Shown here piece by piece: positions 3,400 through 61,799 of a DNA stretch of 64,000 nt; within the stretch, counting starts at the first letter, position 1; every line of letters begins with the position of its first letter. The stretch spans positions 734,344 through 798,343 of the forward strand of contig CAJINV010000013.1 of NCBI GenBank assembly GCA_905178155.1. The letters are read 5' to 3'. The position numbers and the translations under genes were made by a program. A model generated the notes under the pieces. That model saw nothing but the letters and a program-made list of their open reading frames with translations. It made no database searches and was not told the origin of the DNA. This stretch comes from Amoebophrya sp. A120 (Eukaryota > Protista > Dinoflagellata).

Positions 3400-6300
3400 G
3401 TGCATGACAGACAAAGACAAACGTCTTGTGACGGGCTGGCTTCTTCAAAACTGCTTTCGTATGATACCAATACCCCGTGCAGCGCAGCCAATGACTTGCT
3501 GCTCTCGCCATTTGGAGCTGAGGACCTGTTGGAGGGCTTATTCAACAGCAAACAAAAAAAGTTCGTCTTGTGTGTATCAATGCGCGAACTTTGCATCGGT
3601 ACTTTCGTATCGCAATGAGTTTCGGAATCTGACTGTCATGCTGAAGGAAGGCACACGCACATCAGCCTTGGGAAGAAAAAAGGCGAGACCTGCTCTCCAA
3701 GAATCATCGAATGACGTAAGACAACTTGTTTGAGGCGGCACTTCCCACCCTGCTTCAGATGTAGCTGCACATAGTGATCTATACGCGCAGCGTGAGCAAG
3801 TGTAGAAGTTGGAACAGCTTCACAACTACATGTACATCAGAATGCATGTTGACAACATGCACATGCTCACGACGAACTGTTTTGCATTCGGATATCAAAA
3901 CAAGGAAAACCGTAGCGACGCGGTCACCATAGGAGCACCTTCCGGTTTTATCCAAAAAAAAAATATTATGTGTTACTGCAACTTTTTTGGTGCATTTTAG
4001 CACGACAGTAAAATCTTCATGTTTTCATGCGCAGATAGTTTTTCGTGAAGGTGAAAATGCTAGACTGCATGGCCTCCAGCATAACAGACGGAATCAAACC
4101 CTTCTGTTCTTGTGTGTTTCGCAACACATTATGCTTACATGACCAGTAGCACATTTTTTTTCTCCCATAGGTTCGTCGTTGTCGCTGCTCAACAGCAGCT
4201 CTTGCGCAAATGTCACCTCCAGCAAGGGCTTTTTGGCCACCTCCAAGGGCGGTCCGACAACGTGTACAACGTCTAGTACAACATCCGGGACAACTGCGGC
4301 GATGTACGCACGCCCGTCCTCCAAAGCCGCGGGGAAAATGCTCGTCGCACAGCAACAGGACCTCCACTCCTCGGCGGGGAAGCTCCTGCTGCAAGGTGGT
4401 GGTCCTCCGCAAGGAGCAGGAGGTTTTACTTCGCTCATACCGGCTTGCTCGAAATCGAAAGCTGCGCCCTTTCCTGCGACGACAGCGAAGTCTTGCTATC
4501 CAGTCGTGCAACTACAGGATTTTTACTATCATTTCGGTGCAGTTTGTTCGGGCGGTCAGGAAGAAGCGGAAGATAAACATAAAGATTACCTTAGTCAGTC
4601 TTTGCATGGTCGTGTGCTGGAAGATAGCGTATTTTGAAGCCTTGTGCGTCCGCCAGGATCAGGAACGCCACCTCCCCATAATCACAGGACATGCAGATTC
4701 TTGATTTTTTACGGCATAGACCTCCAGCCTTTGGCACGACGCACTGCACGGGAGCGGCCGGGCAACTTTTAGGCAACCTCAGAAGTGCAATTTTAGATTT
4801 AGACTTCGGGAGGTGCCAATGTTACGTACCGCATTGCTGGAGGGAGTTGGTTGTCAAAACCAAAGCCCGACGAGACTAGCAGATGTGCGAGAACTACGAC
4901 GACCGCAGGAACAACGAAATAAACCGACATGATTGCACCTGTATTTTTTGCACACTGTGATACGCTTGCGGGTGGTGGAGCCGCGTCCGCTGCACTGGGT
5001 GGCGGCTCATCGATTTCTGGTGCTTGTTCTTTCGCGAACGCCAACAGTGCTGCGCAGTCTAAGGCGGCCTCACTGGCGCTCGGGATGAAGGGAGCCGACA
5101 TCACGACAGCTGGCGCAGGCAGTGGCGCACCTCCCGCTCTGTTGCCGTTGCCACCAGCTGTAGGGGCGGGTGGAACAAATAAAAATAATGCAGCAAACGG
5201 CCTGGTGTCATCTACATCCACTTCGATTTCGCGAACAGCCGGACCATCATCTACGTATGGCGTTCTGAAGAAGCCGACGGCTTTTCTACCTTCAACGGCG
5301 GACCTGGTGGTGCGGGACACGACCGCATCGTCGCAGATGGTCGGCGGTCCGAATGGAGGCGCAGGGATGATTAGGCCGAAGGCATCTTCCGCTGCCGCGG
5401 GTGCAGCCAATACAGCGCCAGGTGCTCCTGTGGTCGGGCGAAATCTTGCTGCGGGCACAACAGGTTATACCCTCTTGCAAAACGCGCCTGGTGCTCCAGC
5501 AGTTGGCGCCGGTTCTGCCACAGGTAGTGGCCCACTTTCCGCACCACATGGTGCTGCAGTGGGAGGTATTGTAGATGGGGGAGTACAACTTGGAGGAGGG
5601 CTGTCATCGAATTCCGTTGGTGGTGCGACTAGGACTGGTAATAACATCATGTCTGCGGCTACATCAAGTTTCGGGGGTCCGCTTTCCAGTAGCAGCATCG
5701 CGAGTGCGGCCGCAGCGGCGGGTCTGGTGGTGAAAAACACGACATCGACGGCACAACAGTTGGCGCAGCAAGCAGGAGCAGCGAGTGCGGTAGTTCATCC
5801 CGGCGGTAGCAAGACCATTTTGAATCCTAGCGCCGGGGGCGCGTTCGTCCATCCGGGCGGCAGCTCAGGCGCACCAGCGGGGGCGGGCCCGGCTAGTAGT
5901 GGGCCGACTAGTTGTACAGGAGCTGCAATTTCCTCCACCGCGACAACGACAGCTACAACTTCTAACCCGCAGCCTCCTTTGCTGGTAAAGTCCAAGACGA
6001 AGATGCGCATCCCCACCAAACAAAGCCAGCCAGCCGCTATGAGTGCCGGCGCTTCTTCATCTCTGGCCGTAGCAGGAGCCGGACATGATGGCGCTTGCAA
6101 TACATCATCAAGTAGCATGCAATTGCGAGGTGGTGGAACACAGTCGGCCATAGTTGGCGGGGCTGCACCGACGACTACACTTCCTGTGGACGATTCGCCT
6201 TCAGAAGGCCCGCCAGCTGGCAGTTTCCAGCCAAAGCGCGTGACCATTATGAGCCGGAAAAAACCTGCTCTGCAGCAGCCGATCGGAGGCGGAGGTACAG

Positions 6301-6560
6301 GAAATATTGCGGGGATCCCGAATAAAAGCCATTTAGCACCAAGTACCGGGACGACGATGTTGAATAGCAGCACTTCGCAGCCACAGGTGATCAAGCTGCC
6401 ACCAACAATCCTCGGCTTGGAAGACGAAATTCCTGCGGCCGCGAGATCGACGTTCCTTGAAGGCGGGGCTGCGGCACTGCAGATGCGTATGGCACAGAAA
6501 AACACAAACGAGTTCTTGTCTTTGCTACAATTCGTCATGCTCATCCTCATGTGTGTGTAA
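3400..6560 (+). CDS. Multi-exon Gly/Ala/Ser-rich hypothetical protein; ends uncertain, may continue into the 7909-17889 model
   Basis: ORF pieces 3400 (frame 1), 3809 (frame 2), 4179 and 4929 (frame 0) join in frame when the inserts at 3539, 3949 and 4497 are each removed with 5 extra nt (…GAPSG|SSLSLLNSSS…). Confidence 0.6.
3539..3894. mobile_element. Degenerate TAT..ATA introner; DR no longer recognisable
   Basis: Ends tattcaacagcaaacaaaaaaagttcgtc and gacgaactgttttgcattcggata form an imperfect IR; removing 356+5=361 nt joins frame 1 to frame 2. Confidence 0.5.
3949..4169. mobile_element. TAT..ATA introner, DR ggttt/ggttc
   Basis: IR tatccaaaaaaaaaatattatgtgttactg / cagtagcacattttttttctcccata; removing 226 nt restores the frame. 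Confidence 0.75.
4497..4962. mobile_element. Degenerate TAT..ATA introner (466 nt)
   Basis: IR tatccagtcgtgcaactacagg / cctgtattttttgcacactgtgata; removing 471 nt keeps frame 0; the DR is decayed (cttgc vs cgctt). Confidence 0.65.
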
Positions 6561-7908
6561 GAAGAAATTTGATGAAGGATGGCTTGCAAATACTTATTGT
6601 CGTGCGGATGTGTATTTTTGCTCATGCGAACCGCTCCTCGTCGGCATTTACTTCCGGGGGATTGATATCGGAGTTTCATCTCCTGTAGTGTCTGCAAAAG
6701 ATCAATCCGTAATCATCACATTCACACGTAAAGCCGAGCACTTTGACTGTCTGACTGTGACGATGCGAGTTATGATTCTGAAACGAATGCAGACTACGAT
6801 TGTAGTGACAGGGACAGATGAGCACACAGCACTCAAGCTGCAGACTACCTGGAATTCCCTTCCGGCTGATGGTACTACTGCCAGCGGAACTGTGTTTGGC
6901 ACTTGCATACGCGAAGCGGCGGCTGCTGCAACCGGAGCGAATGCGTCCAACCCAGGTGTAGAGGAGGCTATGACCAGCAAGAAACCAGACCAGTAGTAAA
7001 CTCAACACGTCGATAGTTCAGGATTTGGTTCTAGAGGAGATTTTATTATTTTCAAGTTGTACTGGCAGGGTGCATGCGGGCAAGCGATCCAATCGCAGTC
7101 AGAAGCATGAGCGTGAATTTATTCACGTGTTGCCAGTTCATGAAGCAACAAGCAGCCTGCCAGAATTCGCTTCGTTCTTGTTTATGGTGCTACTGTGTGC
7201 GAGAAACGCTGCTCCAAAAAAGGAGCTACGGTCGTTGCGTAGACTTCTGGAGGTATAACTTGGTGTGTGAGGACATGAGAATGGGCGCCCTTGGATGAAG
7301 CTATACAAAAAACTGCACGCATCCTGTACATACGACAACGACGTGTTGTGATTACTTACTAGCGGTTTTGCTAGGATGCCCACCGATGATATCCAAGGAA
7401 AAAGCTGCGCACTAGGGTTGTTACTGTGACTTCATTCTTGGAAAACTGACAGCATGACCAATACAAATACTTGGTTTTTTCTATGTATGTTGAAACGCAC
7501 CAAAGTTGGTTTTGTAGTGGACAAATTCCCAGTCTAACGAGCTATCTTCACGCTCATGGTTGTCCTCTCGCAAGACGAGTGTAAACTGTTCTGCGCGGCG
7601 TGCAGCAGGAATAGCGAACAAATCTTCACATGATTGAAGTTAAACACAAACTTTTTTCTCCCGGATAGACGACCTAGACGACGAGTTCGATGACGACGAT
7701 GATTTGGACGATTTCGGTATCATATTGTTCTAGTGCCTTTGCAACTTCTAACTTCTTGCCTTGTGCTGCGCCATCTTTGTATGTACTTACCATTAGCGAC
7801 AGCAGGAATGAATGCGTATGTGAATGAGAACGAAAATGGAAAATAGAAATCAAAGAAATTCCTCAAATTCCATCACATCACGACCCAGATTCCTACATTC
7901 CCCCTGGT

Positions 7909-10900
7909 GTGTTGGAGATGCAGCAAGCGGGTATTTCGACTGCGGTCTCACACGGTTCGTCTTCCGCAGCCTCCGCGTGTTCGGAGCTTCTGCAGACCGG
8001 TAGCTGCACGGCTGCCGGTGGCGCAAGTGGAGGCTCGTCGTCTCATCTGGGCGGCGGAATACCAAACGATGCGACAGACGCTTCGTCTGCTGCCGCGGCA
8101 ATTCTTTCATCCTCCGCCGCTGCAGAAGAAGCAGAGGGCTTACCGTCCTCCGGCGTGGGTACCGCTGTCCCGGCGAAGAATATTGGCACATCTAGTACAA
8201 CCCACACGGGAGGCAATAATCAGCATAATTTTGGTCGCGCTCCATTTCCTACTTCCGCCGCCGCAGGAGGCAATGCGCAAGCTCCTGGGCTGCAACATCA
8301 CCACCACCAGCAAGCTGGAGCTGGACCGCCGACGACACATTACACCATCACCCCGAGCGGCGAGTTGATTCAGACGGTCTCTCCTGGAGCGGGAGCTGCG
8401 CCGCATATGGCCTCGCCTCCGACAATGAATATTACTTCGCAGCCCGCAGGCACTGTACCTCCGGCGCACCAACGACTGCAGCAACACCAACAGCAGAATC
8501 CCGTCGGAGCCCCCGGAGGTGGAGCAGCAAGTGGTGGCACAGCCGGTGGACGACTCAACGAAGCCCAAGTTGTTCCCTATCAACACGGCACTTCTGGTAC
8601 GACTACGACTGCAGTTTCAGTTAATCAGCAGTTCGTATTACAGTGAAAAATGCCCCCACCGCCAAAGTTGCAAGAATTTGTGATGCGAAGTTTCCAAATG
8701 AAAACTTTTTGTCATGCATAAAAGGAGAAGTATGAGTCTTGTTTAGCTTTGTCTTTCTGATGCCGAGTCTAGGCGCAGTTCGCATCGCTTGCATGACAAG
8801 CGCCGCTGTTGCGGGGATCTTTTGCAATACAAATTTTTGCTATTCACGATTGGAGATCTGTGACGCTGATAGATGCAAGAGGGCGGGCGTTTCATTTGGA
8901 AAGGTTTGCAACACAAATGCTCCCAAGTTCGGGGGTGGGGGCATTTTTCATTGTAATAGTTCGCGCCAGCACGACCGGCCCCATCCTCGACGTCGACTTT
9001 CCCGACTTTTCAGGCCGGCTCTACACAGCAATCGCACAATGTAGTTTTCCCGCCGAACAACCATCAGCAACCGCAGCAGCAGCAGCTCCTGGTACACCAG
9101 CAGCAGCCTGCTATTGGTGGTGTTGGTACAACGAGTACGACCATCGCGGCAAACACTAACGTGGATCCAAATTCTACTTGTTCTATCATGAACAACACCA
9201 TTGTCAGCGACCGGCAGCAAGCTCAAGCTGCTGGGCAGCAGATCATGAAGGACATTGAGTCTTCGTCAGACTCTCTGTCGGACGTGGAGGAGATTTCCGC
9301 CCACGAGATGATGAACTCCGCTTCGGCATCCGCGGTCGTCGGGACTCTCCTCGGAATCACACCTGCTACAACTGCTGAAAGTGGTGTTGGTACGTCTAGC
9401 AGTACGGGTGGGCCAGCATCAACTGCCGCATCATCTGTTGGCGGGACGTTAAACAACGGAGGTTTGTCTGCAGCGGGTGGAACTACTGCCGCGGCTGGCA
9501 GCGCAACTTCTACCTCCAGCAATGGCGCTTGTTCATTGACCAACTCACTCCTCGCGAAAGCCGGAAGCATCACCTCTGCCGGGGCGGGTGGAGTAGCTGG
9601 TGGGGAGAATCAAGGTGGAAATCCAGGTGGGAATCTGCTTCCGGCGCCGCAGCCAGGCGGGGCTGCTGCTCCGCCGGGTGGACAACTAGCCATGCAGCAG
9701 CAGGCTGGAGGTGGGAAGATTTTTTTCTTTCTGGATCCGAGTGGTCGATAAATTTTTTGTGTAGATATCGTGCGCCAATAAGTAGACATTGATATAATCA
9801 CCCTGAAATGCAGGGATATAGTATGTAAGGAAGTATAAGTAATTGAACCATGAACAAAATGGAATTGACAGGTCCTGCCGCCAAGGGGTCACAGGTGTAT
9901 GGCTACTTCAATAATCACCAACAGCAGGGACAACAACCGCAGAATCCTCCGCCAGTTTCCGGTGGCGGAAAGCAGCCGCATCATACCCCGGGGCTAGGTT
10001 ACAAAGGTATACTGTACTTGTGGTGCTGGTGGCCAGACAAGGATGCAATTCATGATGTACATGAGTTTCAGTTGGTTGAAGGTACAAAAACAAGAAAGTC
10101 AAATCTGAAGTTTGTGCTTTGTTCACCGAATTCGAAGAACGAGGACGGCCAGCAAGCTCTTCCCTGTCTGCCTTCATGATGCCTATCGAAAACTGTGTGT
10201 TATCCAACTTATTTTCTGAACTTTTTTTCTCACGACACGATCTAATCAACGCACAGCCACAAGACAAAGTTTTTGACCATAAAAATCGACACATCCACCA
10301 GGTGGCCCCGCAAATAACTCAAATCCCGGAGGCAAGTACGGGCCTTCTTACCACCTGATCCCGGGGATGAACGAGCACCAAGCGCAGTTTGGCGGAAAGC
10401 AACACGGTGGTGACCCAAATCAGCAGTACCTTGTTGGGCAACCGCCGGCGTGGCAGCATGGGGGGAAACAGATCGGCGGAAAGCCGATCGGCAACACTAA
10501 TAACCCGCATCAAATGGTTCTTAATATGACGGGCAGTCCGGAGCACTCTGGCGTTGGACATGCTGACACTCCGCAACAGTTGGGGCCCGGAGGGAGTGCC
10601 CAGAGTCCCAGCGAGCAGAGCACCTTCAATCCAAATGCACCCCCGGTTATCGATACCGCTGGGGGGGAGCAGCTGGGCCAGTAAGATTCTACATGATCAT
10701 CTTTCTCAATGAGGGAGCGAGGACTTCTTCTTGTGGCAGACTCGTCTTCAATTGAAGGCATGAGCACGAAAAATAGTAGCACCTAAATCTAATTCTTGTT
10801 CCTGCGACAAAACAGGTCCCACCACAACGCCACTGCACCCCACAACCCGCAGCAGCAGCAAGGACAAGGCGGAACACCGCCCAAGCCGAACAGTGCCGCA

Positions 10901-13900
10901 GCTCCACGTGGTCATCAGAAGCTGAAACGGGGAAAAGCAAGCGCTGCCGGCGGCAACCCAAACAGTGCCTTGGCTGGCACCGGAAACAACCGGCAAGACA
11001 AAGACGGGAGCAAGGGCGGGGACCAGAAGGGAAAGGCGGGAGGTGCTGGAGGACAGCAGCATGTGCACGGCCATGGTGCAGCACATGCGCAGGCGATTGC
11101 AGGTACACCCATAAGCAGTCTGCCATTTATGTTTATCATGTAACTTGCGGGCTCAGGTTGTTCGGTGGTCTAGCGAAGTTCAGATTTCCATTTCAGTTTC
11201 TAGGTCGACAAAAATATTTGATTTCGGCGATCTGCATCTGAAGTGCATCTCATCTTCATGCGCATCATGCAACCGCCGGAGCTTCTATTTCTACGACCAA
11301 GAACGTATTCCTTGAAGAAGTAGAAATTGCATAAATTACCTCAATTACATTTGAAGTTGATGTTGATGAAGTACACATGATACCTCGATCGTTGTTCATA
11401 CGTTTCATGCATTCGTGAATAGTACAACAGGCTATCACCCCGGTGCAGCTGCTTACCACCCGTACCACACCGCGCCGGGTGCAGCTGGCGGACCGCCACC
11501 CGGAGCGATGCACTACCATCCGCACGCACTTCCGCCGCACGCGTACCCCCACGGGGCGGCGACTTATTACAATCCGCACATGCTACCTCCCAACGCGGTG
11601 GTACCGGGCGCAGCCGGATACGCCTACCCGGGGAAGGGTGGACCGATGATGAGTCCGCCGGGCGGGCCGCAGTACTACCACCAGTATGGAGCACCGGCTG
11701 GTGGGGCCGTGCCCGGCGCGGCGGGCGGATACGTCGCGCAGAACAATCCACACGCAGGCTTGGTGCAGGGAGGAGGGGCTGGAGCAGCAGCACAGCCACC
11801 CGGCCAGGGGGGAGTCAAGGTCCAGAAAGTGCTTTTTCGTTGGATGCTGTGTTTTTCTTGAAAATATCATGCCTATGCGACAAGCTTTAGGTTGTTGGTC
11901 GTTGAGTACTTCATCGAGTGTTCTTACGTACCCCCTGCATCTTCATGTCATGAAGTGTAAATGTTAAAAGTTGAACACTGCTATGCAGGGCGCTGGCGGT
12001 TGGGCGGGCCGCACGGTGATGGGAGCTAATCCGTACGACCAACTACGGGCACAGTATGAAGGTGAAGTGAGTGATCTTGTTCTTGGGGGGTGGCGCTGCT
12101 AGCACCAAAGAAAAACGTCGATTGTAGTCATGCAACGATCCGGATTGGTCTACTTACCATGCAGTAAGTGACATTGTTGGACTTGATGTAGTTAATATAA
12201 TACGGGAAGCCGACCATGATCAAAAGCAAACTCAAAAATCGCTCCCGACCACACGAAGATAGAAGTCGAGTGGTTTTTCCTGTGTTTTTCGCAAGACATC
12301 CGCATGAAAACTGAGCGCGACAACTTTCTCTGGTAGCAGCAGACCTCATTCAAGAAAGACACCCGCTTCATCCCCTCTACACGCAGCAGCAGCTCCAGTA
12401 TGCAGCCCAGCAGCAGGTTTTTGAGGAGGCCGCGGAGCAGGAACGCCGGCGCGCGGAGAAGAGGGCGCGCAAGGAGGAGCGAAAACGGCTGAAAAAGAAA
12501 AAAAAGCTCGAAGAGCAAGAGTCGGAAGAGGAAGAGGCGAGCAAGGACAAAGAAATGGCAGCGACTGGGAGCACAGGGAGTAATGCTCCTGCGGGAGCGA
12601 CGAATTCCAAAAACGAGGACGAGACAGCAGCGGATGCTGACAATGATGACGACGAGCAGGAATTTATCACAAGCAAAACCAAGAAACAAGCTACAACATC
12701 AGCCCCATCGGGGACAAGCCACGTCACGACCACCGCGGACGAGCACCAAGTACTGGAGCTGCCAGCAGGAGGAGCTAAAAATTTGTTGGCTGGTGCAGAT
12801 CATGAAACGACGACGAGAGCTGGTGAAGAAATCGGAAAGGACACCACGTACAAGCCGTCTAAAGAAAAACACCCGGCTGCTGGGCATGTGCAAGATGGCA
12901 AGAAGAAAAGCAAAGAAGTTGTAAGAACCTCACACGAGGACGACCCTAGTGCAACTCGAGGTCGAGAGATGACCACTGAGCAAACCATTACCAAAACAAC
13001 AGGCGTGGAGGAGGAGGACGACGATGGAACAAGCGCCGACCAGGTGGAACAAAGTGCCGTGGATGAAGTTGAGAACAAAAATCACAGTTCTGGGAAGCAG
13101 CAGGGAACAAAGCAACCACAGCAACAAGCAGAATCACAATCTGAAGGGTCCTCGCTGGTTACAAGTACGAACCCGTCCTCCGCTGCTGCAGGAACTACAG
13201 AGCCGACTTGTTTCACCCAGCAACAAAAGTCAAAAAAGCATTCGTCGCGCCTTCCGCGTGCCGCGACTGAGCAAGAGGATCGCACTAAACTTCTTTCCAC
13301 AACATCTTCGGGAGGTGGTAACAATGGCATGGTACTAGATGTGGACGACGTGGAGCTCGAGATTGTCGAACAAAATCCCGCATCAGCACGGCAAAAGCAG
13401 AAGATTCTGGCAGGAGAAAAACTTTCGAACGACAAACAGGTGAAAAAGCGAGGGAGTAAAGACAGAAAAGCGAAGACTGATTATCAAAATGAAAAATCCC
13501 CCCTCCCCATACCGAAACGGCATGACTCCGAAAATTTGTGTTGCTGATTTGAGACCACAAATCACGCCTGTCTTGCAAGAAGACAAACGCAGAGGCTTCC
13601 GGGCCATTATGGAAGCGATTTGGCATGCTGTTGGGCCTAGGGGACAGCCGTCTGCAATGCTAAATAGCTAGACCCAAACGCCCCCACCTAGGCTGAGGAT
13701 CTCGCTGCGATGCCTTATTGCAAGACAGCGCGCATTTGTGTACGGAAATCCCGCATCAGAAACTTCGTCTCCATATGGGGAGGGGGTATTTTTCCTTGCA
13801 ATACTGATCTTGGCGGAACTGCGGCTGTTGCTGCTCCGAGCGAGGGTGAGGCAACAGCTGCTATACAAAACAAAAGGAAGGATGACGCTCGTGGTCCAAT

Positions 13901-20687: not shown

Positions 20688-23600
20688 ATGCAGGACCTCC
20701 AAATGCAAGATCCAAACGACCACCGCAACCGTAATCCTTTCGAGGTGGAGCGACAGCGGCTTGAAGGAGTCAATGCTGGTGAACAAGAGGATGAAATTGA
20801 CTGCATGGTGGGCGGTCAACAGCATATTGGAGATGTTGAAACAGGTGATTATGATCCGGCACTGCTAGAGCAACCTCTAGATCATGAGCAGGCGTCAAAT
20901 AAGCGGATGCTAGACAGCACCACTTCCGACGACGCTGACTACGATTTTGACCAGGAGCTGGATCTGGACCAGATGCAAATTCAGGTAGACGAAAACTGCT
21001 CCTCTGCAGGCACGAGGACCACTGGTTGTACTATGGCAAGTAGTACAACAAGCAGCAACAACTCCGGGGGCGGTCGCTCCGACAAGGAGGCTGCGGATAT
21101 TGCGCAGCTCGTGTCTGACTGTTTCAGTTTCGACCCGGCAAAAGACAAAACCTCGTCCCTCGAGGAGGACAAAATATTAAATTTGGAGCAGGAACAAGAA
21201 AATCATAAGCAATCCAGCAGCAAGAAGAAGATTTCCACCGAACAATTGTACACCCCGTCCGCACAGCCGGTGCTAAAACCCTCAACATCTTCGAAGCCTT
21301 CCTCTGCGCAGCGGTCCCCGGCGGTGTCACCGCCGGCGGCGATGAACGAGGAGCAGATGAAGATCACGGAGTGGCTGTTCAAGAGTTGCGTCGGCATTCC
21401 GCATATCAACTGCAAAAATGTCTGGGTCTGGGAGATTGCGAGATAATTTGTCATGCTAGTCTGGCATGACTCTGAACTCTGTGTTGCATGTTGGCCGCGA
21501 AGAGCCCCTCCTCCTTGTCATGCAAAAACGCAGTTTCTCATGCGGAATAGCAACTCAGAAACATGAAAAAAACTTGTCATGCTTGGCAGCGCATTATAGT
21601 GAGTTCACTCTTCCCTTTCTTGCATCACAAGTTTCCAGACCCAGACATTTTTGCATTTGATACCGCAGCGGACCAGCATTTCGCCCTCGGTGTCCGTGTC
21701 GCCGAATTTGAACAACGGGAACAAGTATCAAATGCAAATACTTATGTCTGGGTCTGGAAGAATGCAAACTTGTGATGCGCATTCCAGAACACAGAAAAAT
21801 CTCTCATGCCTAGGCAGCAAAAGTTGCCCACTTTCTGTCTCGAAAGTCAGGGACTTGTCATGCGGATTCGGCATTGCGGGAGCTTCTCGAAACCTGTGAT
21901 GCTAGAGCTTCCACGCCAGACCTTTTGCGTCATGCAAAAACAGCATGACTCTTCCAGACCCAGACATTTTTGCAGTTGATAACAAGAGCGGTCGTGGCAA
22001 TAGCAAGAAGAGCGGCGTCAATTCTACTGCTGGTGGAGGTGGAAGCTGCTCCTCTTCTTCAAATCCAGCCGCGGATCGGAACAACGCCAATCTGAGTGCA
22101 ACGGAAATGAACAACATCATGACGCTGCTATGGCGTTCTCAACTGTTACATTCTCAACTGTTACATGAATTTGTGATGCAAGAATGGCAAAAGTGATAGG
22201 GGGGATCTTGCGCGTCTTGCATGACAGATTTGGAACCGATTGTCAGCCTGTTTGGCCCTCTGAGAATTTGTCATGCGAAGCAGCTTGATGGTGACGATTC
22301 TGAAGGCAATTTTGCATGACAAATCATGTAACAGTTGAGAATGTAACGTTTGAGAACGCCATAGCTGCTCACCGGCGGATGCAACAAGACTAGTACCAGT
22401 AGAACTACTGCAGGAGCAAATACTAAGCGGAACAATGCCGCAGGAACAAGTAGTAAGATCTCATCCAAGAACACAGCAAATTCCAACAGATCCTCGAGAA
22501 GCAGTGTCGTTGTCCAGAAACAGCGCAGCCTGCAGCAGGCATCAGGCCCGACTGCGGACGAATTCGATCCTGCAGCGATACCGATGGTCGGGGGCGGCGG
22601 GGAAAGCCAGGAGCATTCTTCCGATTCGAACGGAGCAGTAGAGCACCGAAACGGGGGCTCTCCAGCAATACTGGAGATCCCAGCCGGAGCAACGACCACA
22701 GGCGATCTGGATTTGGACGCGATTCTCGGTCTGACTGCGGCGCGCCAGCAGCAGCTGCAGCAATACGCCAACTACAAAAACAGTATTTCATCTTCAAGTT
22801 TAATACCAGGGTCGTCGCAGCATCATCAACAGCACTCGTCGAACAAGCAAAATCAGAATTTGATCAGTTTCAAACTGAACAAAACAGTGTCCAGCTGTTC
22901 TTCCGGGTCCACTGCCTGCAGTTCTGGTGGTTCTATGTCCACTGCGTCCAGCACCCTGGTGGACAGCGCTCGAACCACTCCGCAAGGTGCGCACGTAATT
23001 CACGGGACGACCCTGGAAACGCAGGAACAGGTGCAGCAGTTTTTGTTGAACGTGGGCGCGGGTGCCGCGTCGGTGCCCGTCCAGAACGTCGTCTCCGTGT
23101 CTCCGGTGCTGGTCAGCACCGAGAATGGATTGATGCAGGTGATTGACGGCACAACAAGAAGCGGGGCAGCTTCATCAACAACATCTTCCGGGGCTCCTGC
23201 ACCGGGAGGTACAGCTGCACCGGTACAACATCAAGTTCTTGCAAATCTAGTTCGCCAACCGAGCAAAAACAGCAATAAAACGAAGCAGGTGATCGCGCTC
23301 GGCGGGGGTGGATCTGGTGGTGCAAAGAAACAGAAGGTCGAAGAGGTACAGCAAGTAGGGGTTGTTCAACATCCACAACTTCCTCGTGGAGCAGGACAAC
23401 TGATCCTACACCCACCTCCTCCGGGAACAAGCACTGCTGCTATCAGTATGCTCCAGCAGCACCAGGATCTTCAGCTTCAGCGCACACACTCGCAGTCCAA
23501 CGTGTCGATGATATCAACCACCGCTTCCTCAACCTTCACCCAAACCGTCGAGGAGTACCACCGCGAGGCGGACAAGTACTCAGAGGAGTGGAAGAAAAAT

Positions 23601-25365
23601 CTTTTTCTCTCCCCCCCGCCGGAATCCCGGTTCGAGTGCTCCATGCAGGGAACGGACATGAACGACCAGAAGATGGCCACGTTCCACAAGTGGCTGAATG
23701 AGATTCTCATCGGGGTCACGCAGTCCAGAGGGCCCCTAGTGAATGCGATGGTCGATTTCTCGGGGAACCCCGACCTGACCGACATGGCTCTGCGGAAGTT
23801 GCTCGTGGTGTTGAAGCGATCCAAAGTGCACGTGAAAAAGCTGGTTTTGAACAAAACCGGGATTTCGGACGTCTCGATGCAAAATTTGTTGAACTTCCTC
23901 ACCCCGAAGAACAATAGTGGTCAACAGCACAACGCTGGGGTCGAAGGTGGAATTCTTTCGTCGTCGCAAAACCAGCAGCACCAGCGGCCGATCGAGCACA
24001 TCTGCTTCGAGAGTTGCCCGAACGTGACGGAAAACGGGGTCTTAATCCTATTACGACACTTCGACCAGAACCCGCTCTACCCAGTCCGGAAACTGTTGGA
24101 CAACAAGCACGGAAAGCAGGACGTGCAATACGAGTCGGTCAACGTTCAAGCGAAGGCGTGCGAGAACATGAACTACGTGAATTTGTTCAACCGCATCCAG
24201 ATGGTATCCACAGAAAAAAACCCATCCACATACATTTTTTGCATGACAAACACAGAGTCGTCGAAAACCGGAGTAAGAGGGGCCGTCGGACCGGGAAATC
24301 GCTTGCTGGTTAATATGTATGCGTGACAAGCTGGCTGCGTTTTGCATTCGTGGCAGTCCAGGAAAGAGGAAGAACTAGTGAAGCGATCGGATCGACGAGG
24401 TGCGTCAGGGGGCGTCACTCATTCATTCATTCATTCATGTATGTTTTGCATGACAAATTGGATGTGGATGGGTGTTTTTTCCTGGATAGATGGAGACGAA
24501 GTTGTCCTATTGCTTCGACGACCGCATCGCGTACAACAGGAACCCGCTCAAGTGTCCGGTGCTGATGTTCTCCGGCGGTCTAAACCCGGGGTACACAGGG
24601 GGAGCTGGAAGGAACAATCTACATCCCAATAGTGCAACTACGGCTACCTCTACGGCGGCGGGGGTCCTTCTTGCGCAGCAACATCAGAACATGATCGGAG
24701 CTGCGCCAGGTGCAGCAGGTGGTCTACAAAACTACAACCATCTTCCCGGAGGTTATAATCTTCCACCACCGCAGCTACAGGCCCAGTTCCAAAATGTCTA
24801 CACGGGCGCGATTGTGGGCACGGTTCCCATTGGACCTGAGCTCCACCACCTGGGCACGACGACTTCTACACTAAGTTCTTTCGGAGGAATGCAACACCAG
24901 CTTCATGCAGCGCAGCAAAACCACAGCTCCTACGGCAGTCAGACAAGAAGTTGCGCGAACCATGTCGACCCAAGCGCTAGCACTGCTGCTGGCACTACTG
25001 CAGCAGCTACCCGAACTACTACACCGGATCTCGAGGATCAGGACCCCTTGAAGGCGGTGCAGGACATCATCGGCGAGATCAGCTCGAGTACGAAGGCCGG
25101 TGGCAAGAATACTAAAGGCGGGCGGGGGAAAGACGGTGCATCTGGCGTCAATGCCACCGCCTTCCCCGGTGGAGGAGATCGCGGTACCGGGAAAGATTCC
25201 CATTCCGCCGGCTGTACTAATGGCGGGCGGTACCGCGCGAACAGCCACTGTCTGCAGATGGGCGATACCATCGGCCCGCCGCCGGGCAAGGGCGCGGTGG
25301 TGTCCGGAGGGAAGATCTACTACTCGACGCCAGCACCGGTGCAGGGGAATGGTATAAGTACATAG
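20688..25365 (+). CDS. Large protein with an RNI-like leucine-rich-repeat region; four introners
   Basis: ORFs 20688, 21651, 21945, 22584 and 24490 join in frame. LRR-like segments VDFSGNPDLTDMAL, LVLNKTGISDVSM and ICFESCPNVTENGV. The 3' end may include a further small intron. Confidence 0.8.
21404..21662. mobile_element. TAT..ATA introner, DR ccgca (family 1a)
   Basis: IR tatcaactgcaaaaatgtctgggtctgg / ccagacccagacatttttgcatttgata; removing 264 nt is in frame. Confidence 0.95.
21726..21981. mobile_element. TAT..ATA introner, DR acaag (family 1b)
   Basis: Family-1 TIR; removing 261 nt is in frame; the interior is the reverse complement of 36241-36495. Confidence 0.95.
22129..22363. mobile_element. 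TAT..ATA introner, DR gctgc
   Basis: IR of about 40 nt, tatggcgttctcaactgttacattctcaactgttacatga / tcatgtaacagttgagaatgtaacgtttgagaacgccata; removing 240 nt is in frame. Confidence 0.95.
24205..24488. mobile_element. TAT..ATA introner, DR gatgg
   Basis: IR tatccacagaaaaaaacccatccacat / atgtggatgggtgttttttcctggata; removing 289 nt gives RIQM|ETKLSY. Confidence 0.93.
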
Positions 25366-42200: not shown

Positions 42201-45200
42201 CTGTGATATGAGTACGGTCTCGCCAACCGCATTGCAACAGCTCGCGCACGCAGATCGCGCAAAGTGCTTGGCTTTGCTCTTCGAATGCGAAGCGGGGCCC
42301 TATCGACTTTTCATCCCTTGCAAGAATTACTTCAGCAAACATTTTGGGAACCGGGCTCGGAATGGATTTTTTTCACCCCTAATCTTCCTGCTGGTGGTGT
42401 GCTTTGCGATAGGCCTCGCGGTCTACTACTGGTGCTGTTGTTGCAATTATAAAACTGGCGGAGAAGAAGAGGATTTAGAGGACAATAAAGAACATGGTAG
42501 TAGAACGATAGGCACTGCAACTACAGAAGGCACAACAAGAACTGGAGCAGCTAGTACAACGGTTGTGCAGTCCCCTCCACCTCCACCTGCACCAGCTGCA
42601 CCGGACTACTATATCGGAGAGCGAGGCGCAAGGCTTGAAGGTGGCGCAACGCGAGCCACGACAGCGACGGGCTACAGTTCGACACGGGAGCAGCACCACG
42701 GGGGTATAATGATAATCGCAAGCTGGTGCCCGTGTTGCAGCGGCATTTTCGGAGTAGACGAGCAGGATCCTGCAAATTGTAATAACGGGAAAAGAACAAA
42801 AACACCAACGGAGAATGGGCCTGGTGGACCAGTCTCCGTGGATGTTTTTGCGTGGACGGCGCAGGGGGACCCGGTCGTGGACGGCGCAGGAGGAGCTGCA
42901 CCTGTTTCTGCTGCTCCCATTACCGTGTCTGCCGCCCATATGGAAGCGTCAGGTTTGAAATCGACAAAGTTGAAACGATTTGCCATGCATAAAATGGATA
43001 CCAGTTGGAAGCCCAATTTCCAAGCGGCGCATGACAAATTCTCGGAGCAACGGAATCCAATTTGTCATGCTGTTTGGGCACAGAAGACTGCTTTTGTCCT
43101 GCTCCTTTAGCAGCTCTATCCCAAACCCTAAATAGGCTCACAATCTGCCTCGCTTGCCATCCCTGCAAGAGAGGCGCTTCATGTCTTGCAGTTTATGCAT
43201 GAGAAATTATTTCAACTTTGACGATTTCAATCCTGACGCTTCCATAGCCCAGGCCGCCGAGTTGATGCAAATGAACGCCGTTGACGCCCGCGGGGAGCTT
43301 CTGATGTTCGCCACCCCCTTATCCTGAGTAAAAACGTACCCACACCAGAGCTGTAATGCAGATTTGCAAAGACAGGAAGACTTGTAATGCGCATCCCCAT
43401 GAGAGCCATTTCCAATCGTGTTTTGAAATTTGTGATGCTGTGAACAGGATGAGCAGATGAATCTGTGACGCGGCTGCACTTGCTAACCAGCACTACACTG
43501 CGGAGTGCAATTTGTCATGCGTGACTCCCAAAACTCCTAGGCTTGTGCTGCAAAATCCCCATCCTGACTCTGGTGTGGGGACGTTTTTACTCAGGATACC
43601 CCTCCGGGCAGCTGCTCTCGCCCGCGGAGGTACACGCCTTGGCGGTGGAAGAGGGGAGCGCGAGCGGGCTGCCTGGTGGCCAGACGTCCAGTTTGTTCCT
43701 GCACATTCTCAGTGGCCAGGACGAGTCGGGCGTTGTCTCTTTCGACAACGCGCGCGGTGGTGGAGGACCGCCTATTACAGCCCAGCAATCCCCTGGTATT
43801 CTAGTCGGAGAGGACCAGATGATCTACTCCAGCCATGGAAGATATGGAAGTGTCACGTGTGAAATCGACAATAAAGTGAAAGTTGAAACAAATTTGTGAT
43901 GCAAGAAAACAAACGCATTATATGTAAGTAAGTATCTATAGCGTAGCCATAGAAGAGTGCGAATGCCTGTATTAAAGAGCAGGCAAGTTGTGACAGCGAA
44001 GGCCGCGATTGTGTGCCTCTTGGTCGTTGGGTATGGAGCTCGAGCTGCTGAATAAGTCGAATAGGAAGAGAGGTCTGCATTCCGCGCCAAACAGCCCGAG
44101 AAATCTGATTGCGATGCTGCCAAAATTTTAATTTGTCATATAATTGCGCGACGTGGAGGTGCATCTGCATCTGCAAGCGTGATGAATTATTGCAAACCAT
44201 TTCCTTCGAGTTAATATTTGTCGATTTCGAGCCTGGCACCCTGATAGCCAACCCGTTGCGGAGGTAGTTGCGCAATCGCCTCGGGGTGTTCCACTCGGAG
44301 CCAAGACGCCGTCCGTGAACGCGATCAGACTGTTGGTTCAGGACCCACGTGCGGATCTACCCTTTCTATCGCCTTTGTCGACCTTCACAAACAAAATGGT
44401 CAATGACTTGGTCGACGGAACAGGCGGTGGAGCACCAGCGGGCGCCAATGACAGCCGAAACAGGCGCCGGGCCTCCAGTGTCGGTTATGAGTATACAGTG
44501 GTGCCAAAAATACCGTCAGTCCAACCAGCAACGGACTCCATTTTGAGGTACGAAATCGAAAATGCTCACCAAGTAATGTGGTCCGCGCCTGGTACTAGCA
44601 CTAGGACTAGGAGTAGTTGTAAACTAAGTACAAACATCGCACACCTCGCACCTTTCAAGAAAAACATCAGGCTCACGCCATCAGCTAACTATGATCAGCA
44701 GAGATGAAGCATGATCTCCATTGATGAACGATATCATTATCATATGAACGAGCTGGAGCTACTTTGGTTTGCATGTAGTTGCGTCAAAGTTCTTCGACCG
44801 CCTTCAACGAACTCTGTGTCCTCTGGATACTTACACCGAAGAGCAGTAAGAGACTGACAGTCTCGCGTGAGAGTTGCGAGTTACTAGAACAAGCAATGCT
44901 ATTTGAATTTGATGTTAGTACCAGAAGCGGCAAGATTTCTTGCGTTGCATATCACGGAGGTAGCCGGAAAGAACGTGATGGGGCTGGATTCGGACATGGC
45001 TATCGTTGCGGAGCCTGAGAACAAGCAAAAGCAGGGTAAGAAAAAACTGGATCATGCCAAAAAGAAGCTGCGACAAGTCACCGGTTTGAATAAAAAACCT
45101 GTGAAACCTAAAGTGTTCGTGCCGGGTCCGATGGACGGCGGAGTTGCCGTGGTCCTCGCTTCGCCATCCCCCCGCGATCGGCCTAGCAACCTCGTCCCAG

Positions 45201-45718
45201 CAGGAGGTGGAGTGCAACCTGGTGCAGAAGCAGGAGCTCAAGGCACTACAACATCTTCTACTCCCCTGCCCGCCGGCGCCGCCCCGCTGGCCCTTACTCC
45301 CAAGACAGCGTTCGAGATGAATCCGCAGATGAATAATAATAAACTAGTTGCCGCAGGAGGTCGCGGTGGCACTGGCACCGTCGCCGCCCCCGCCCTCGTT
45401 CCGGTTATAGCAGTGAGAATGGGCGGCTCTTCCAAGAAATCCCGTGGAACGATGAATGCGGTTGAACCAGGAGACCAACCTAGTCCCATTTTTACGAGTC
45501 CCTCCGCAAGCAGGCAGGGATCGAAAACCGCGGCTCCCGACCACCGCGGCGCGCCAGTAGAACAACCCGATCTGGGGGTTCCAATTACGGATCCGTTGTC
45601 GGACCTTATTCAGCTCGGAGGTAAACCCCGCCCACCAATCACTCGCGATGCCTACTTTACGTGGGACAAAACCAACGACACGTTTGCGAAGCCGGCGTAC
45701 TCGTTTGAAGACCGATAA
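39214..45718 (+). CDS. Large predicted membrane protein; five introners plus unresolved introns around 44600-44920
   Basis: ORFs 39121, 42088, 43543 and 44315 join in frame. The transmembrane helix AVWIVGGVVLF|LLVVCFAIGLAVYYW is reconstituted across the 41591 insert. The link to ORF 44903 is inferred. Confidence 0.72.
41237..41445. mobile_element. TAT..ATA introner, DR tcctt (family 3)
   Basis: IR tatccaagaaaaaaacattg / caacgtttttttcttggata; removing 214 nt opens the frame. Confidence 0.94.
41591..42382. mobile_element. Long TTA..TAA introner variant (792 nt), DR tcttc
   Basis: IR aaaaaaatccatccgctcaacggctcccaaaatgtttg / caaacattttgggaaccgggctcggaatggattttttt; removing 797 nt rejoins a transmembrane helix. 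Confidence 0.87.
42939..43246. mobile_element. TAT..ATA introner, DR gccca (family 2, inverted relative to 33791)
   Basis: IR tatggaagcgtcagg / cctgacgcttccata; removing 313 nt opens the frame. Confidence 0.95.
43320..43598. mobile_element. TAT..ATA introner, DR cccct
   Basis: IR tatcctgagtaaaaacgtacccacaccagag / ctctggtgtggggacgtttttactcaggata; removing 284 nt joins to ORF 43543. Confidence 0.95.
43837..44246. mobile_element. Diverged family-2-like introner with an altered left end, DR gccat/gccaa
   Basis: Left end ggaagatatggaagtgtcacgtgtgaaatcgac, right end gtcgatttcgagcctggcaccctgata; removing 415 nt joins to the frame of ORF 44315. Confidence 0.7.
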
Positions 45719-53863: not shown

Positions 53864-54010
53864 AACCTGGTCACGCCTAAGGCGGGCAGGTTTCCCTCAT
53901 CCCCTTGGGGGTATCTCTCTCTTCCTCTCTTCCTCTCTCTACCCACAGTCACGCCAAAGGCGGGCTGTGTTTTCGACATGGAAGTCACGCCAAATGGCGG
54001 GCTAAATGTC
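53864..54010 (+). repeat. Three conserved hairpins with core GTCACGCC(n3-4)GGCGGGC
   Basis: At 53864-53892, 53944-53969 and 53975-54010; the core is shared while the outer stems differ but still pair. Confidence 0.85.
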
Positions 54011-54036
54011 TCTCCTTCTCATCCAAATAGCAAGGA

Positions 54037-56312: not shown

Positions 56313-56329
56313 TTTTTTTTTTTTTTTTT
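56313..56329. repeat. Poly(T)17 tract
   Basis: Directly visible. Confidence 0.9.
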
Positions 56330-57650: not shown

Positions 57651-60600
57651 ATGAAGAAGTCCTCTTCTCGTTCTCCCTCACCCATGAAAATGGGAGTGGC
57701 GTCGTCCGCATCCTCATCTTCAGTGATGAAAAAGATGACATCGACGACGTCGCCCAAAAATATCCACAGTAAATTTCCCGTACGTGCATCTAGGTACAAA
57801 TGCGGTTCTTTCCGCGTGACAGAACTTGTCTTCGGTCCTGCTTACTACACTTTATCTCTAAGTTGGCGAAATTTACTTGTGAAGATGCATTTTGTACGTT
57901 TACGGGATCGGGAAATTTGTGTTGCATAAAAAATGGCGCAACTACTACATCAAATGGCAACCTCCACCGGCCGGTCCGGTCCTGCCGCACCGATCAACAA
58001 GCGGCCGCTTCGGCATCTTCAAAATCAATGTCGATGTCTATGAAGCAAGCTCCGTCGCCGAAAATGATGCAGCATTCTATGGCGAGCAAGTGCATGAACA
58101 TGAAACAAGCAAAGTTGCCACAGCTCCCGGCAGTACCGATGAAGTCGCCGTCTCCGATGAAGAACTGCTCCGGTGCTGGAACGACATCTGCTACTACTTC
58201 ATCATCTAAACCTGCGAAATTGCCGAGATTACCAGGAGACCACGGTGCATCAAAGCGGTCGGCCTCCAGTGCGATGAAGAAAACTTCCTCTAGTATGGTG
58301 AAGAAAAAACAACTGAAGCGCAGTAATTCCGCCCCCGCGCCGGCGTCGTCGACAAACAAGAAGAAAAGTAGTAACCCCGGAAGTAGGACATCAACAATTT
58401 TGATGAAAAGCAAGCCCGCTAGTCGTGAAAAGGAAAAGATGAACAAAAAATCCGCCTCTTCACCTGGCAGAACAAGTTCTGCCTCTTCTTCGCCAGCTCC
58501 GTCGAAAAGATCGAGTTCGACCCCAAGAAAGGACACAAAAAAACCGACCACCCCCGCACCGAGTGCTGCTAGTAGTGCGGAGAAAAAGAAGAAGTCTTCC
58601 GCATTTTCGCCTGGTGCGATCGCGCCGTTGGTGCAACACCCGGAGGCCAACCACAAGACGAAGCGGCGAGACCAGGTTTTCAAGAATCTCAACGAGGAAC
58701 TCATGAGAGTAATTCCACCTCCTTCGAAAAATAATCTAAATTCCAATTCGGGGGATTCTGCTGCGACTACTTCATCATCATCTACGGGGCCGCGGCAGCA
58801 GCAAAATTTCAGGCATGAACTTCTACAACAAGACGATGATCAAGACGACCCCATGGACGTGGATTCGCACCATGAGAAATTTGCTGCCTTTGCTCTCGAG
58901 GAACCACTTCCGGAAGAACAGGAGGACCGGAAGACGAGCAATTCATCTGTTGCGAAAATCACCAGAGGAGCAGGTCCTGCACCTGCAGTAGCTTCCTCCG
59001 GTAGTAGTTCTAGCTCCTCGAACAAGCGGAGCCGAGGGTTAGCGTTTGATGCCGGCTGTGGAACGCAGGTTGGCGTAACATCTGCTCGGAATAATAAAGC
59101 TAGTCCTGTTTTGGCTTTGCACCCCTCGGATCATCAACAGCACTCCTCTAATATTTTTACGGGAGCTGTTGAGCCAACACCGAAAAAATTGAAGAGCATT
59201 TTGAAGAGTCCGGAGAAGTCCTCTACTTCGAGCGTTGCTCTAGACGGTTTCGTCGGAACGGGAGCGGCTTCATCCTCCTCTTCCTCCGCCGCCGCCGGTG
59301 TTAGAGAACTTGTTCCAGCTTTTGACCCGCCTCAGCGGTCGACGAAAATGAATAATTCATCAACCGCAACTACATTTTCGAAGCAGCAGCAGACCACGAC
59401 ACAACACCTCGCGAACATGAAGTCCGCCTCCTCTCCGTCGAAGTCCAAGTCCCCGCAAAGATCAACCTCGAAATCAAAATCCAAATCGCCGCGAACATCC
59501 TTGGTGGGTACGGCTGCGAAAAACAAGAGCGGCGCTAGCTCATCTGCTGACACGCTTGCCGCACTTGCTGCGCAAGCACAGGCGAAGAAGAAATCGGTGC
59601 AGTTTGTGGAACGTGGTCCGGACGTATCCTCCTGTGCAAATGTATCGTACTCGTATAAATGCTTGCTTTGCATCACAGATCCAGTAGCTTATCTGAATCA
59701 GCATGACAAATTGCATTTTTGCTTTTCGGAAAAAATTGTAATGCGATTTATACTAGTGCGATAGTTTTGCAATGCATAGGACGTTTTCAAATACGATGAT
59801 GTGTACGACGACGGGTACGGAAATCGCCGGGCTTGGTTATGACACCCTCAGAATGGAAATCCTCAAAGTGGAAATAATTTGTGATGCATGAAATGCGACA
59901 CCAAAAAGACTGTATTGCAGAGAACGCAATGGAGGCGGATTATTATGTTTCTACGGGTTCAGAATTGGGCTGCTGATTAGCATGAGAGAAGGGCACCCCT
60001 TTGCTTAACTAGCATGACAGACACGTTTTGAGCGCCCGGGGAATTTGTCATGCGCCGACTAGAAATAGCGCTCCAACTGGAGTCGTTTTTTTGCATTACA
60101 AATCATTTCCACTTTGAGGATTTCCAACCTGAGGCTTTCATATTGGTTCCAAGGACCCTACGAGCACCAACAAACGCAACTGGATTTTTTGGTACACAGA
60201 TTTCTCTTTAATATGCTCTCTTGGAGCAAGAGCAACTACATGCTCTACAGATCATTTCTGGTGGTTGTCACACCTTAACTTGAGCTTGCCCTCGTAGAAG
60301 TACTGCTCGTGCTCCTCCACCTCCTGCTGCCTCTTGCATTAATGCACATTCGTGTGGTGAGGGTGAGCAGCAGGAGCAGCAGCGCTGGGTCTCCTATGGC
60401 CACATTCCGCTTTAGAAGATGAAAACCAAACGGAAAGGTGAAGATTGAACGCATATATAAAATTATACTCCAACACAAACAGTTCGGCTGGCCGGAAGAC
60501 TGGGAGCGGGAACAGGTTTACGAGAAAAACCAGCGCTATGGATGTGTCAGGATCGAAATCGACAAAATCGAAAAACTTGTGATGCATAAAATCGATACCA

Positions 60601-61799
60601 GTTGGAGCCTCAGTTTCCGAGTGGCGCGTGACAAATTTCGGGAACGCCCAAATCCAGTCTGTCATGCTGTTTGGGCAAAAAATGCCGCTCCTGTCATGCT
60701 ATTCCGGCAGCACATTGCATACCCCTAAACAGGCTTACAATCGGCCTCATTTGCCTGCTCCCCAATACAGGCCTTCAATGCCCTACATTTTATGCATCGC
60801 AAGTTTTTCGATTTTGTCACTTTCGATCCTGACACACTCATAAGCGCTATCCAGATGATGATGATGTACGTTCGAGTTCCTGTGAGGTTCGGTTGGGTTT
60901 GTTTGCATTGATCACCAGGAGCATGACCATCATCATTTAAAAAGATGATCATGATGAAATAAAAGGACGGGTGCGCTTCGCCGTGTTTCGTTCAAAGCAC
61001 CACAATCATTCAAGAGCAAGCCAAGCAAACCCTTCCTCAGAGGAAGAACAACGTCACTTCTCCCCTCCACAGCCCGAAGCGGCGTGAGAAGTTTTTCCAG
61101 CTCACGAACGGGCTAGGTGTCGGTGGGTCAGGTGAGGCTTGGGGTGACGAAATGGATCCGAAGCAAACGGACGAGCAGGACCTGTTCGGCTCGCCCCTGA
61201 AATTCGAGTCCTGTGTATCCAAGAAAAAAACGTTGTGAGTGTAAATTTGTGATGCGCAACATGCAAAGCGATTGCGTCTCTCATGCTTGGCATGCATCGC
61301 AGGGTCCATTCAGCGGCGTTTTCTCGTACTATCTGCGCATGACAGGTTTTTGCTGTCATGCCAGACAAATTTGTAATGCTGTTCCTCCAAAAAGTTCCAC
61401 CTACAATGTTTTTTTCTTGGATACTGTGCGGAAGGCGAGGATGAAACGAGCAGTAGTCCGTTGCAGCAACGGCATGTGCCCGTGTCGCAACTACAACAGC
61501 AGGCCGCGAACACGACATCTACTCCCTCGGCTGGTGTTGGTGGAACGGTAGTTCTTGGCGGGGGCAGCAGCAGCAGTAGCTCCGCAGCGACAAACACCTA
61601 CAATTACATGCAGCAGGAGCAGCAGCAGACCCAGACGTACAACAACTCTACTACTACTTCCGGGACCACGTCAAGAGCGAACACGACCAGAGCACCCGCG
61701 CCTGGCCCGTCGGCCGGGGTGGAGGAAGTCGTCGGCTACCTAGTGAATGAGCATGAACAGCATGGAAAAGCAAAGGGCAAGGGACAGCAGCGCTTCTGA
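57651..61799 (+). CDS. Basic Ser/Lys/Met-rich protein; five introners plus probable GT-AG introns (about 60193-60437 and 60866-61040)
   Basis: ORFs 57543, 57800, 60438 and 61461 join in frame after removing the inserts. Confidence 0.75.
57761..57928. mobile_element. TAT..ATA introner, DR aaaaa
   Basis: IR tatccacagtaaatttcccg / cgggaaatttgtgttgcata; removing 173 nt gives SPK|NGATT. Confidence 0.88.
59625..59778. mobile_element. TAT..ATA introner, DR ggacg (family 4, inverted relative to 33575)
   Basis: Its reverse complement begins tatgcattgcaaaa like 33575; removing 159 nt is in frame. Confidence 0.9.
59838..60142. mobile_element. TAT..ATA introner, DR ttggt (family-2 related)
   Basis: IR tatgacaccctcagaatggaaatcctcaaagtggaaat / atttccactttgaggatttccaacctgaggctttcata; removing 310 nt opens the frame. 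Confidence 0.92.
60537..60842. mobile_element. TAT..ATA introner, DR agcgc (family 2)
   Basis: IR tatggatgtgtcaggatcgaaatcgacaaaatcgaaaaactt / aagtttttcgattttgtcactttcgatcctgacacactcata; the interior is collinear with 42939. Confidence 0.94.
61216..61423. mobile_element. TAT..ATA introner, DR ctgtg (family 3, inverted relative to 41237)
   Basis: IR tatccaagaaaaaaacgttg / caatgtttttttcttggata; removing 213 nt is in frame with ORF 61461. Confidence 0.95.

Follow-up and report, generated by a model that had tools for sequence, protein, structure and literature searches.

The window analysed here, a 64,000-nucleotide stretch of genomic DNA from the marine parasite Amoebophrya sp. A120, contains genes interrupted by short inserts with inverted-repeat ends. 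Between positions 3539 and 61423, 28 candidate elements were catalogued (Table 1), of which 25 have TAT..ATA ends, one TTA..TAA, one TAC..ATA and one, a doubtful member, TAT..CTC. Their lengths range from 136 to 792 nt, with all three classes modulo 3 represented. The inventory was compiled by a search for TAT..ATA pairs flanked by a repeat of 5 nt, followed by sequence reading and protein mapping for the degenerate members; the scan for N5-TAT..ATA-N5, proposed in a preliminary description of this DNA, recovered the elements at once. That description had counted 25 inserts, 23 of them with TAT/ATA termini; the inserts are real, and their number is corrected here.

The 5-nt direct repeat (DR) described as flanking the inserts is exact in 20 of the 28 candidates and altered or lost in the other eight. 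It carries one mismatch in four elements (3949, 7390, 28709 and 36241; elements are named by their first base) and two or three mismatches in two (44549 and 43843), and is essentially gone in two (3539 and 4497). As a chance control, window TAT..ATA pairs of up to 900 nt were scored: an exact 5-nt flanking repeat was present in 16/20 pairs with a terminal inverted repeat (TIR) score of at least 24 versus 9/4895 with a score below 12. By sequence match, four families have at least two copies in the window (21726/36241; 21404/37507; 33791/42939/59838/60537; 41237/61216) rather than the five or more first proposed; other window families are multi-copy in related contigs. Repeat finding showed several members of the multi-copy families to be mutually inverted.

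A protein query made from exons of the window retrieved the NCBI protein P0001 (1359 aa, Amoebophrya sp. A120) with 100% identity, and all 1359 residues are rebuilt once six elements, each with 5 additional nucleotides, are cut out. Because a protein of strain A120 matches the window exactly, the inserts are the published A120 introner elements themselves, not an analogue, and the link that had been drawn to the non-canonical Amoebophrya introners is borne out. Farhat et al. 2021 (PMC7789003) described A120 introners as RNA-seq-supported non-canonical introns resembling miniature inverted-repeat transposable elements (MITEs), with 29,850 copies and an inverted-repeat (IR) motif of TAT, seven variable bases and at least three A. 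The strain, IR motif, border repeat, non-canonical removal and repeated families are all found here. The DRs were given as 3–5 nt, varying in length and position, with an example of 5 bp in the legend to Fig. S19; the legends to Fig. 3 and Fig. S23 call the splice sites variable, 1–5 nt from the IR, and elsewhere they are variable or unknown. Gozashti et al. 2025 (PMC12130899) classed A120 introner families as TIR DNA elements, family 38 being listed as 'Ginger, 5-bp TSD, TA/TA Termini' (TSD, target-site duplication) with integrase-like homology. For the other A120 families, the 38 of 58 A120 rows of their supplementary file 8 that were covered give automated TSD calls of 2–6 nt and no common register. 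The elements are thus already known for this strain, and a uniform 5-nt duplication is partly in print. A literature search, mostly outside subscription journals, returned no paper that deals with excision chemistry or a uniform register in Amoebophrya, and a term search of the available text of PMC13326754 found no mention of the genus.

Removal of each element together with 5 nt was examined in sequencing runs. Contigs of run X1 skip 36236–36495, 37193–37418, 37502–37766, 41232–41445 and 41586–42382, each an element plus five. One record joins 35547–36235, 36496–37192 and 37767–38317, its length of 2020 equalling three such removals, and in another a 140-nt gap corresponds to the exon between two such removals; the middle exons were deduced from the coordinates of the records, with exact agreement in total length. 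In a third contig, the sequence restarts at 28972, as a sixth skip would predict, the piece upstream of it being unlisted. X1 probably behaves as RNA, because its depth differs gene by gene and falls to zero on 32696–33232 and 3200–8486; run X4, from that study, lacks two GT-AG introns. For the aldo-keto reductase gene, 25 in-frame combinations were scored with a profile built from 78 homologues; removal of five additional nucleotides at both elements ranked first, and the resulting junctions show no indel in nine aligned homologues. Over 3200–12500, runs X1–X4 gave no exon cover at the degenerate elements 3539, 3949, 4497 and 6488, and two protein searches gave no match for their host gene.

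The preliminary description had stated that removal of the element plus five always restores the frame. Judged by stops, the frame was open at all 25 sites tested, and other offsets were also open at some of them, so that stops alone cannot establish the rule everywhere; a codon model preferred +5 in 21/26 cases, the exceptions being 6488, 41237, 57761, 59838 and 60537. Element 41237 is nevertheless removed as +5 in both the RNA contig and the annotated protein. In a frame test on the window and related contigs, which decided 93 of 346 elements and left 253 undecided, +5 won in 61/62 cases with exact repeats, 15/15 with one mismatch, 4/5 with two mismatches and 6/11 of the more degenerate ones, some of which were mis-paired. 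Frame tests address 5 modulo 3 only; the exact value was taken from the RNA contigs, P0001 and the aldo-keto reductase homologues. Together these data make it nearly certain that the element plus 5 nt is removed from transcripts.

Element ends also occur in other contexts. At 8924–8958 and 36448–36495, element ends on foreign flanks were seen in probable RNA contigs, one of them at a depth of 563, and in a few raw reads; because of these foreign flanks, the RNA data include copies from other loci that were unspliced or retained. The X1 contig at 28972–32437 continues without a break over 3.5 kb, beyond a stop near 29035 and across a further stretch near 30100–30690 that resembles an open reading frame (ORF), representing either a long 3′ untranslated region or read-through.

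A larger sample was drawn from JACKZZ01 contigs, on which a pattern scan gave 150 loci. Their best matches to the window are confined to the elements, at 72–94% identity, and the contigs may therefore come from a relative. Selection by TIR alone yielded 318 elements (17 from the window, the rest from these contigs), with some false pairs such as window 1893–2724. An exact 5-nt duplication flanks 240/318, with one mismatch in a further 32 and two in 10; an exact 4-nt repeat was found in 2/318 and a 6-nt repeat in none. The 240 exact duplications comprise 211 distinct 5-mers, and shuffling of partners gave an expectation of about one match in the set of 346. This set contained mis-paired internal ends; 41 of its members (23 with another exact partner, 18 with a weak self-TIR) were dropped before the register and synonymy counts in the relatives, and the unfiltered set was used for the base-profile, family, GT/GC-AG and frame-test counts.

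The 200 oriented elements fall into 15 clusters and 24 singletons, and copies of the largest family lie in either direction with respect to the inferred transcript (36 versus 25). Both ends share one profile, TAT followed by an A-run at 11–15; A occupies positions 11–14 in 81–96% of the oriented elements, TAT being required by detection. The junction bases show no bias. Canonical U2 ends, GT/GC-AG in any register, are possible in only 12/159 elements, and GT-AG at register 4 (defined below) in 6. Neither of the contrary outcomes named in the preliminary description, retention of the inserts or GT-AG junctions, was thus seen, the contigs being free of the inserts.

Some unusual members were noted. 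In a family of about 262 nt (L014:3058-3320, L020:2603-2864, L025:2307-2568), an internal TIR-like end (...GCAGGATA) lies near base 140, which suggests a composite or nested origin. Three spans of 631–1031 nt (L044:3315-3945, L062:3001-4031, L068:3787-4758) have family ends and exact 5-nt repeats and lack a transposase-sized ORF; they may be nested or extended copies. The element at 41591–42382, the only one with TTA..TAA ends, follows the same +5 rule; TTA is the published A25-type start. It holds an internal 84-nt perfect-junction palindrome at 41864–41947 and has no match in the 150 related loci.

The position of the cuts within the duplication was expressed as a register, the number of upstream duplication bases kept in the mRNA. 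Exact repeats are uninformative because all six registers yield identical mRNA; mismatched repeats can tell the registers apart. For 36241 (TGCGA/TGCGG), the downstream G is present in the contig with no mismatch, which limits the register to at most 4. At 43843 (GAAGA/GCCAA) and 44549 (TGAGG/TCACG), P0001 is reproduced by registers 4 and 5 only, and the contig start at 28709 implies a register of at least 2. The one rule fitting all of these is register 4, with an intron N-TAT...ATA-NNNN, and we regard it as likely. Among the filtered relatives, stops arise in two elements under register 0, in one each under registers 1 and 3, and in none under registers 2, 4 and 5. Single mismatches are synonymous in 15/28 cases against 27% at random (p=0.003); this agrees with a model of one coding and one unconstrained copy, which predicts about 43%.

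Removal holds, by way of the annotation, where the two repeats match at only 2–3 of 5 bases. Since degenerate duplications and both orientations are tolerated and GT/GC-AG ends are scarce, we infer that the cuts are set by a ruler measured from the element ends and not by homology between the repeats. The proposal of MITE-like elements with a 5-bp duplication that leave the transcript with five extra bases is upheld by the RNA contigs, the duplication counts and P0001; the accompanying idea that one whole target copy is deleted probably needs amendment, as removal probably takes one base of the upstream copy and four of the downstream copy, and matching copies are unneeded. A fixed 1+4 register, independent of repeat identity, may be the novel and testable refinement of the published account.

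The elements likely arose by transposition. They have the features of MITEs, namely TIRs, a TSD of constant length, small size and no transposase; neither the window nor the 150 loci contained a long coding element or a cognate autonomous element with these ends. Ginger DNA transposons are expected to end in TGT..ACA, which the TAT..ATA termini do not match. Family 38 is likewise stated to lack Ginger termini (PMC12130899). By analogy with that family, an integrase-like transposase would fit the 5-bp duplication.

The best explanation, to which we assign a probability of roughly 0.55, is that the A120 introners arose by transposition and are cut from pre-mRNA at sites set by a constant spacing to their TAT-N7-AAAA ends. 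A putative DDE transposase acting in trans would insert the element into almost any sequence by a 5-bp staggered cut, as the uniform 5-nt repeat suggests. In the transcript, the ends are predicted to pair, presenting the same motif in either orientation; both orientations do occur in coding regions. The upstream cut would then lie 1 nt ahead of UAU and the downstream cut 4 nt past AUA, releasing N-UAU...AUA-NNNN, and the mRNA would keep target bases 1–4 from upstream and base 5 from downstream, as suggested by three elements. For the catalyst, the chances that it is a modified U2-type spliceosome appear about even. Fixed branch-to-acceptor spacing exists in some protists. A relaxed U2 spliceosome with such a ruler may be suited to these ends: in register 4, positions +2 and +3 are U and A, matching GUA, and the 3′ cut would be preceded by a U-run and by an invariant AUA spanning −7 to −5 (A at −7 and −5).

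Several observations weigh against this explanation. The identification of X1 as RNA is a guess, contigs drop rare forms, the raw RNA runs X8 and X9 gave 10 and 2 partial reads, on element ends, and the RNA runs may not be independent of the annotation. The register is drawn from three elements and two kinds of evidence, with one rule assumed for all. Two of the three depend on an annotation built from BLAT/EST2GENOME transcript alignments (PMC7789003), and an aligner preference for GT could pull 44549 to register 4. In the relatives, mutation polarity is flat; at base 5, the upstream base had the higher codon likelihood in 8/10 cases, with a sum of only 1.5 nats. Mimicry of a 5′ splice site (G at +1 or +5) is unsupported: base 5 is G in 49/159, like its neighbours, and element base 4 at the 5′ end is more often C than G. 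Element 43843 is removed though its overall fold is no better than shuffles (z −0.43), whereas the predicted hairpin of 36241 is strong (z −7.3), and G-U versus A-C mismatches (150 versus 160) give no RNA-pairing signature. As a hairpin is predicted for the young element and not for the old one, and no G-U bias is seen, the motif at the ends may be of greater importance than an extended stem.

The alternative that survives best, though we hold it to be rather unlikely, keeps the same elements and ruler and replaces the spliceosome by an endonuclease acting on the paired ends with a staggered 1/4 cut, followed by a ligase; the intron would be linear or circular, as reported for euglenids. The lack of junction base preference and of GT/AG, the symmetric ends and the orientation independence all suit such a route, as do the Euglena code, which also measures from a stem (N3-CDG...CH'G-N5-6; PMC12501133), and the failure to detect U1 in A120 in the reported survey (PMC7789003). 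A120 nevertheless keeps nearly all spliceosomal proteins (PMC7789003) and splices GT-AG introns, register 4 lands on +2U/+3A, and the Fritillaria introns with TIRs and TSDs are reported to be spliceosomal (PMC11282704); the enzyme itself is putative, and none was sought. A stronger version, which we consider improbable, would have a single sequence-free code, exon|N-UAU-N7-AAAA ... UUUU-N7-AUA-NNNN|exon, decoded by a specialised and possibly transposon-derived non-spliceosomal machine that measures 1 and 4 bases from the element ends and undoes any insertion with a 5-bp duplication in either orientation, even one whose duplication has decayed.

A still less probable alternative is that only the total of element plus five is fixed and the junction floats inside the duplication from element to element, according to local pairing or microhomology. 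The published description of sites as variable, 1–5 nt from the IR (PMC7789003), agrees with this, as do the equivalence of all six registers at exact duplications and the flat polarity and base-5 codon likelihood in the relatives. Every informative case, however, is compatible with register 4, removal is still +5 where the copies share 2–3 of 5 bases, and sliding by the aligner alone would give the published spread.

Programmed DNA excision, in which the element and one duplication would be lost from an expressed genome copy as with internal eliminated sequences, is very improbable: its geometry does resemble transposon excision and contigs hide minority forms, but a contig of the DNA run X5 (28400–33642) spans 28709 ungapped and five further listed X5 contigs run from exons into element ends, although the X5 joint table was swamped by paralogues and thus does not show that the joined DNA form is absent. 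Template switching by reverse transcriptase at hairpins flanked by direct repeats is a known artefact, and a hairpin with a short direct repeat is its typical setting in evidence that is entirely cDNA-derived; that real mRNAs keep the inserts can nonetheless be practically dismissed, since removal is required for an intact copy of the conserved aldo-keto reductase, +5 wins nearly all decided frame tests with exact or singly mismatched repeats, and skips occur at degenerate repeats too.

Returning to excision at a fixed distance from the element ends, comparison with known systems shows both shared and distinct features. The published A120 introners agree in strain, TAT-N7-A ends, border DRs, non-canonical introns and MITE-like nature (PMC7789003); they differ in that DRs of 3–5 nt and variable sites were reported, whereas 5 nt across families and a 1+4 register are suggested here. 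The families of PMC12130899 share the TIR DNA class and, in family 38, the 5-bp TSD and TA/TA termini. Euglenid nonconventional introns likewise have a terminal stem, fixed-length sequence-free spacers and border DRs, with a CAG/CTG motif, spacers of 3 and 5–6 nt, an exon-start purine and circular excised RNA (PMC12501133, PMC11282704). The A120 elements differ in their TAT/ATA ends and spacers of 1 and 4 nt; the CDG/CH'G motif and the exon-start purine were not found, the purine share at base 5 being 0.58, like its neighbours. Introns of Fritillaria borealis are also MITE-derived, with TIRs, TSDs and non-GT-AG ends (PMC11282704, PMC13326754), and prefer AG-AC or AG-AT ends and a flanking TAC, in contrast to the A120 elements, which have no preferred junction bases.

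The existence of the elements is unsurprising, having been published; the point of interest is the excision route. Should every duplication prove to be 5 nt long and every cut 1+4, a single code would replace the 'variable' junctions, which number in the tens of thousands. This would fix where lariats, circles and branch points should be sought and would explain the harmless insertion into any exon in either direction and the spread of the elements. Mismatched duplications provide a cheap genome-wide test of the register on existing RNA-seq data.

Table 1. Candidate introner elements and their host genes in the window.
Feature	Position	Strand	Remarks
TAT..ATA element	3539..3894	+	Weak TIR; no remaining duplication (GGGCT/TCAAA); codon score highest at +5; without RNA cover
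TAT..ATA element	3949..4169	+	Duplication mismatch at base 5
TAT..ATA element	4497..4962	+	Duplication degenerate (CTTGC/CGCTT)
Doubtful element	6488..6623	+	TAT start (TAT..CTC), no ATA end; exact 5-nt repeat; +5 not favoured
TAT..ATA element	7390..7667	+	One duplication mismatch; candidate, frame not established
Element	8636..8958	+	Exact duplication GTTCG
Element	13482..13803	+	Exact duplication CTGAT
Element	21404..21662	+	Exact duplication; family with 37507
Element	21726..21981	+	Exact duplication; inverted sister of 36241
Element	22129..22363	+	Exact duplication
Element	24205..24488	+	Exact duplication
Element	28709..28969	+	Base 2 mismatch (GGTCC/GATCC); RNA contig resumes at 28972; DNA contig spans ungapped
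Host gene, aldo-keto reductase (Pfam)	33216..34985	+	Two elements and one intron with GT-AG ends (by sequence)
Element in aldo-keto reductase gene	33575..33733	+	Exact duplication
Element in aldo-keto reductase gene	33791..34096	+	Exact duplication
Element	36241..36495	+	Base 5 mismatch (TGCGA/TGCGG); downstream G kept in RNA contig
Element	37198..37418	+	Exact duplication; missing (+5) from RNA contig
Element	37507..37766	+	Exact duplication; missing (+5) from RNA contig
Host gene of P0001 (1359 aa)	39214..45718	+	All six introns are such elements
Element	41237..41445	+	Exact duplication; missing (+5) from RNA contig and P0001
TTA..TAA element, 792 nt	41591..42382	+	Exact duplication TCTTC; no transposase-sized ORF; missing (+5) from RNA contig and P0001
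Element	42939..43246	+	Exact duplication; skipped in P0001
Element	43320..43598	+	Exact duplication; skipped in P0001
Element	43843..44246	+	GAAGA/GCCAA, three mismatches; only registers 4 and 5 agree with P0001
TAC..ATA degenerate element	44549..44951	+	TGAGG/TCACG, two mismatches; only registers 4 and 5 agree with P0001
Element	57761..57928	+	Exact duplication AAAAA; ambiguous frame test
Element	59625..59778	+	Exact duplication
Element	59838..60142	+	Exact duplication; ambiguous frame test
Element	60537..60842	+	Exact duplication; short exons, weak frame test
Element	61216..61423	+	Exact duplication; inverted sister of 41237

None of the 28 listed elements lies within 44952–57760. At 50843–53795 on the + strand, a 650-codon ORF with a GIY-YIG domain (Pfam PF01541) is followed by overlapping ORFs in other frames, in which reverse-transcriptase-like motifs were recognised by eye with no Pfam hit; the region looks like a broken Penelope-like retroelement. 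Near the start of the window, positions 121–545 hold a CA/CACG microsatellite followed by short CCCTAAA/CCCAAA-like repeats that are telomere-like.

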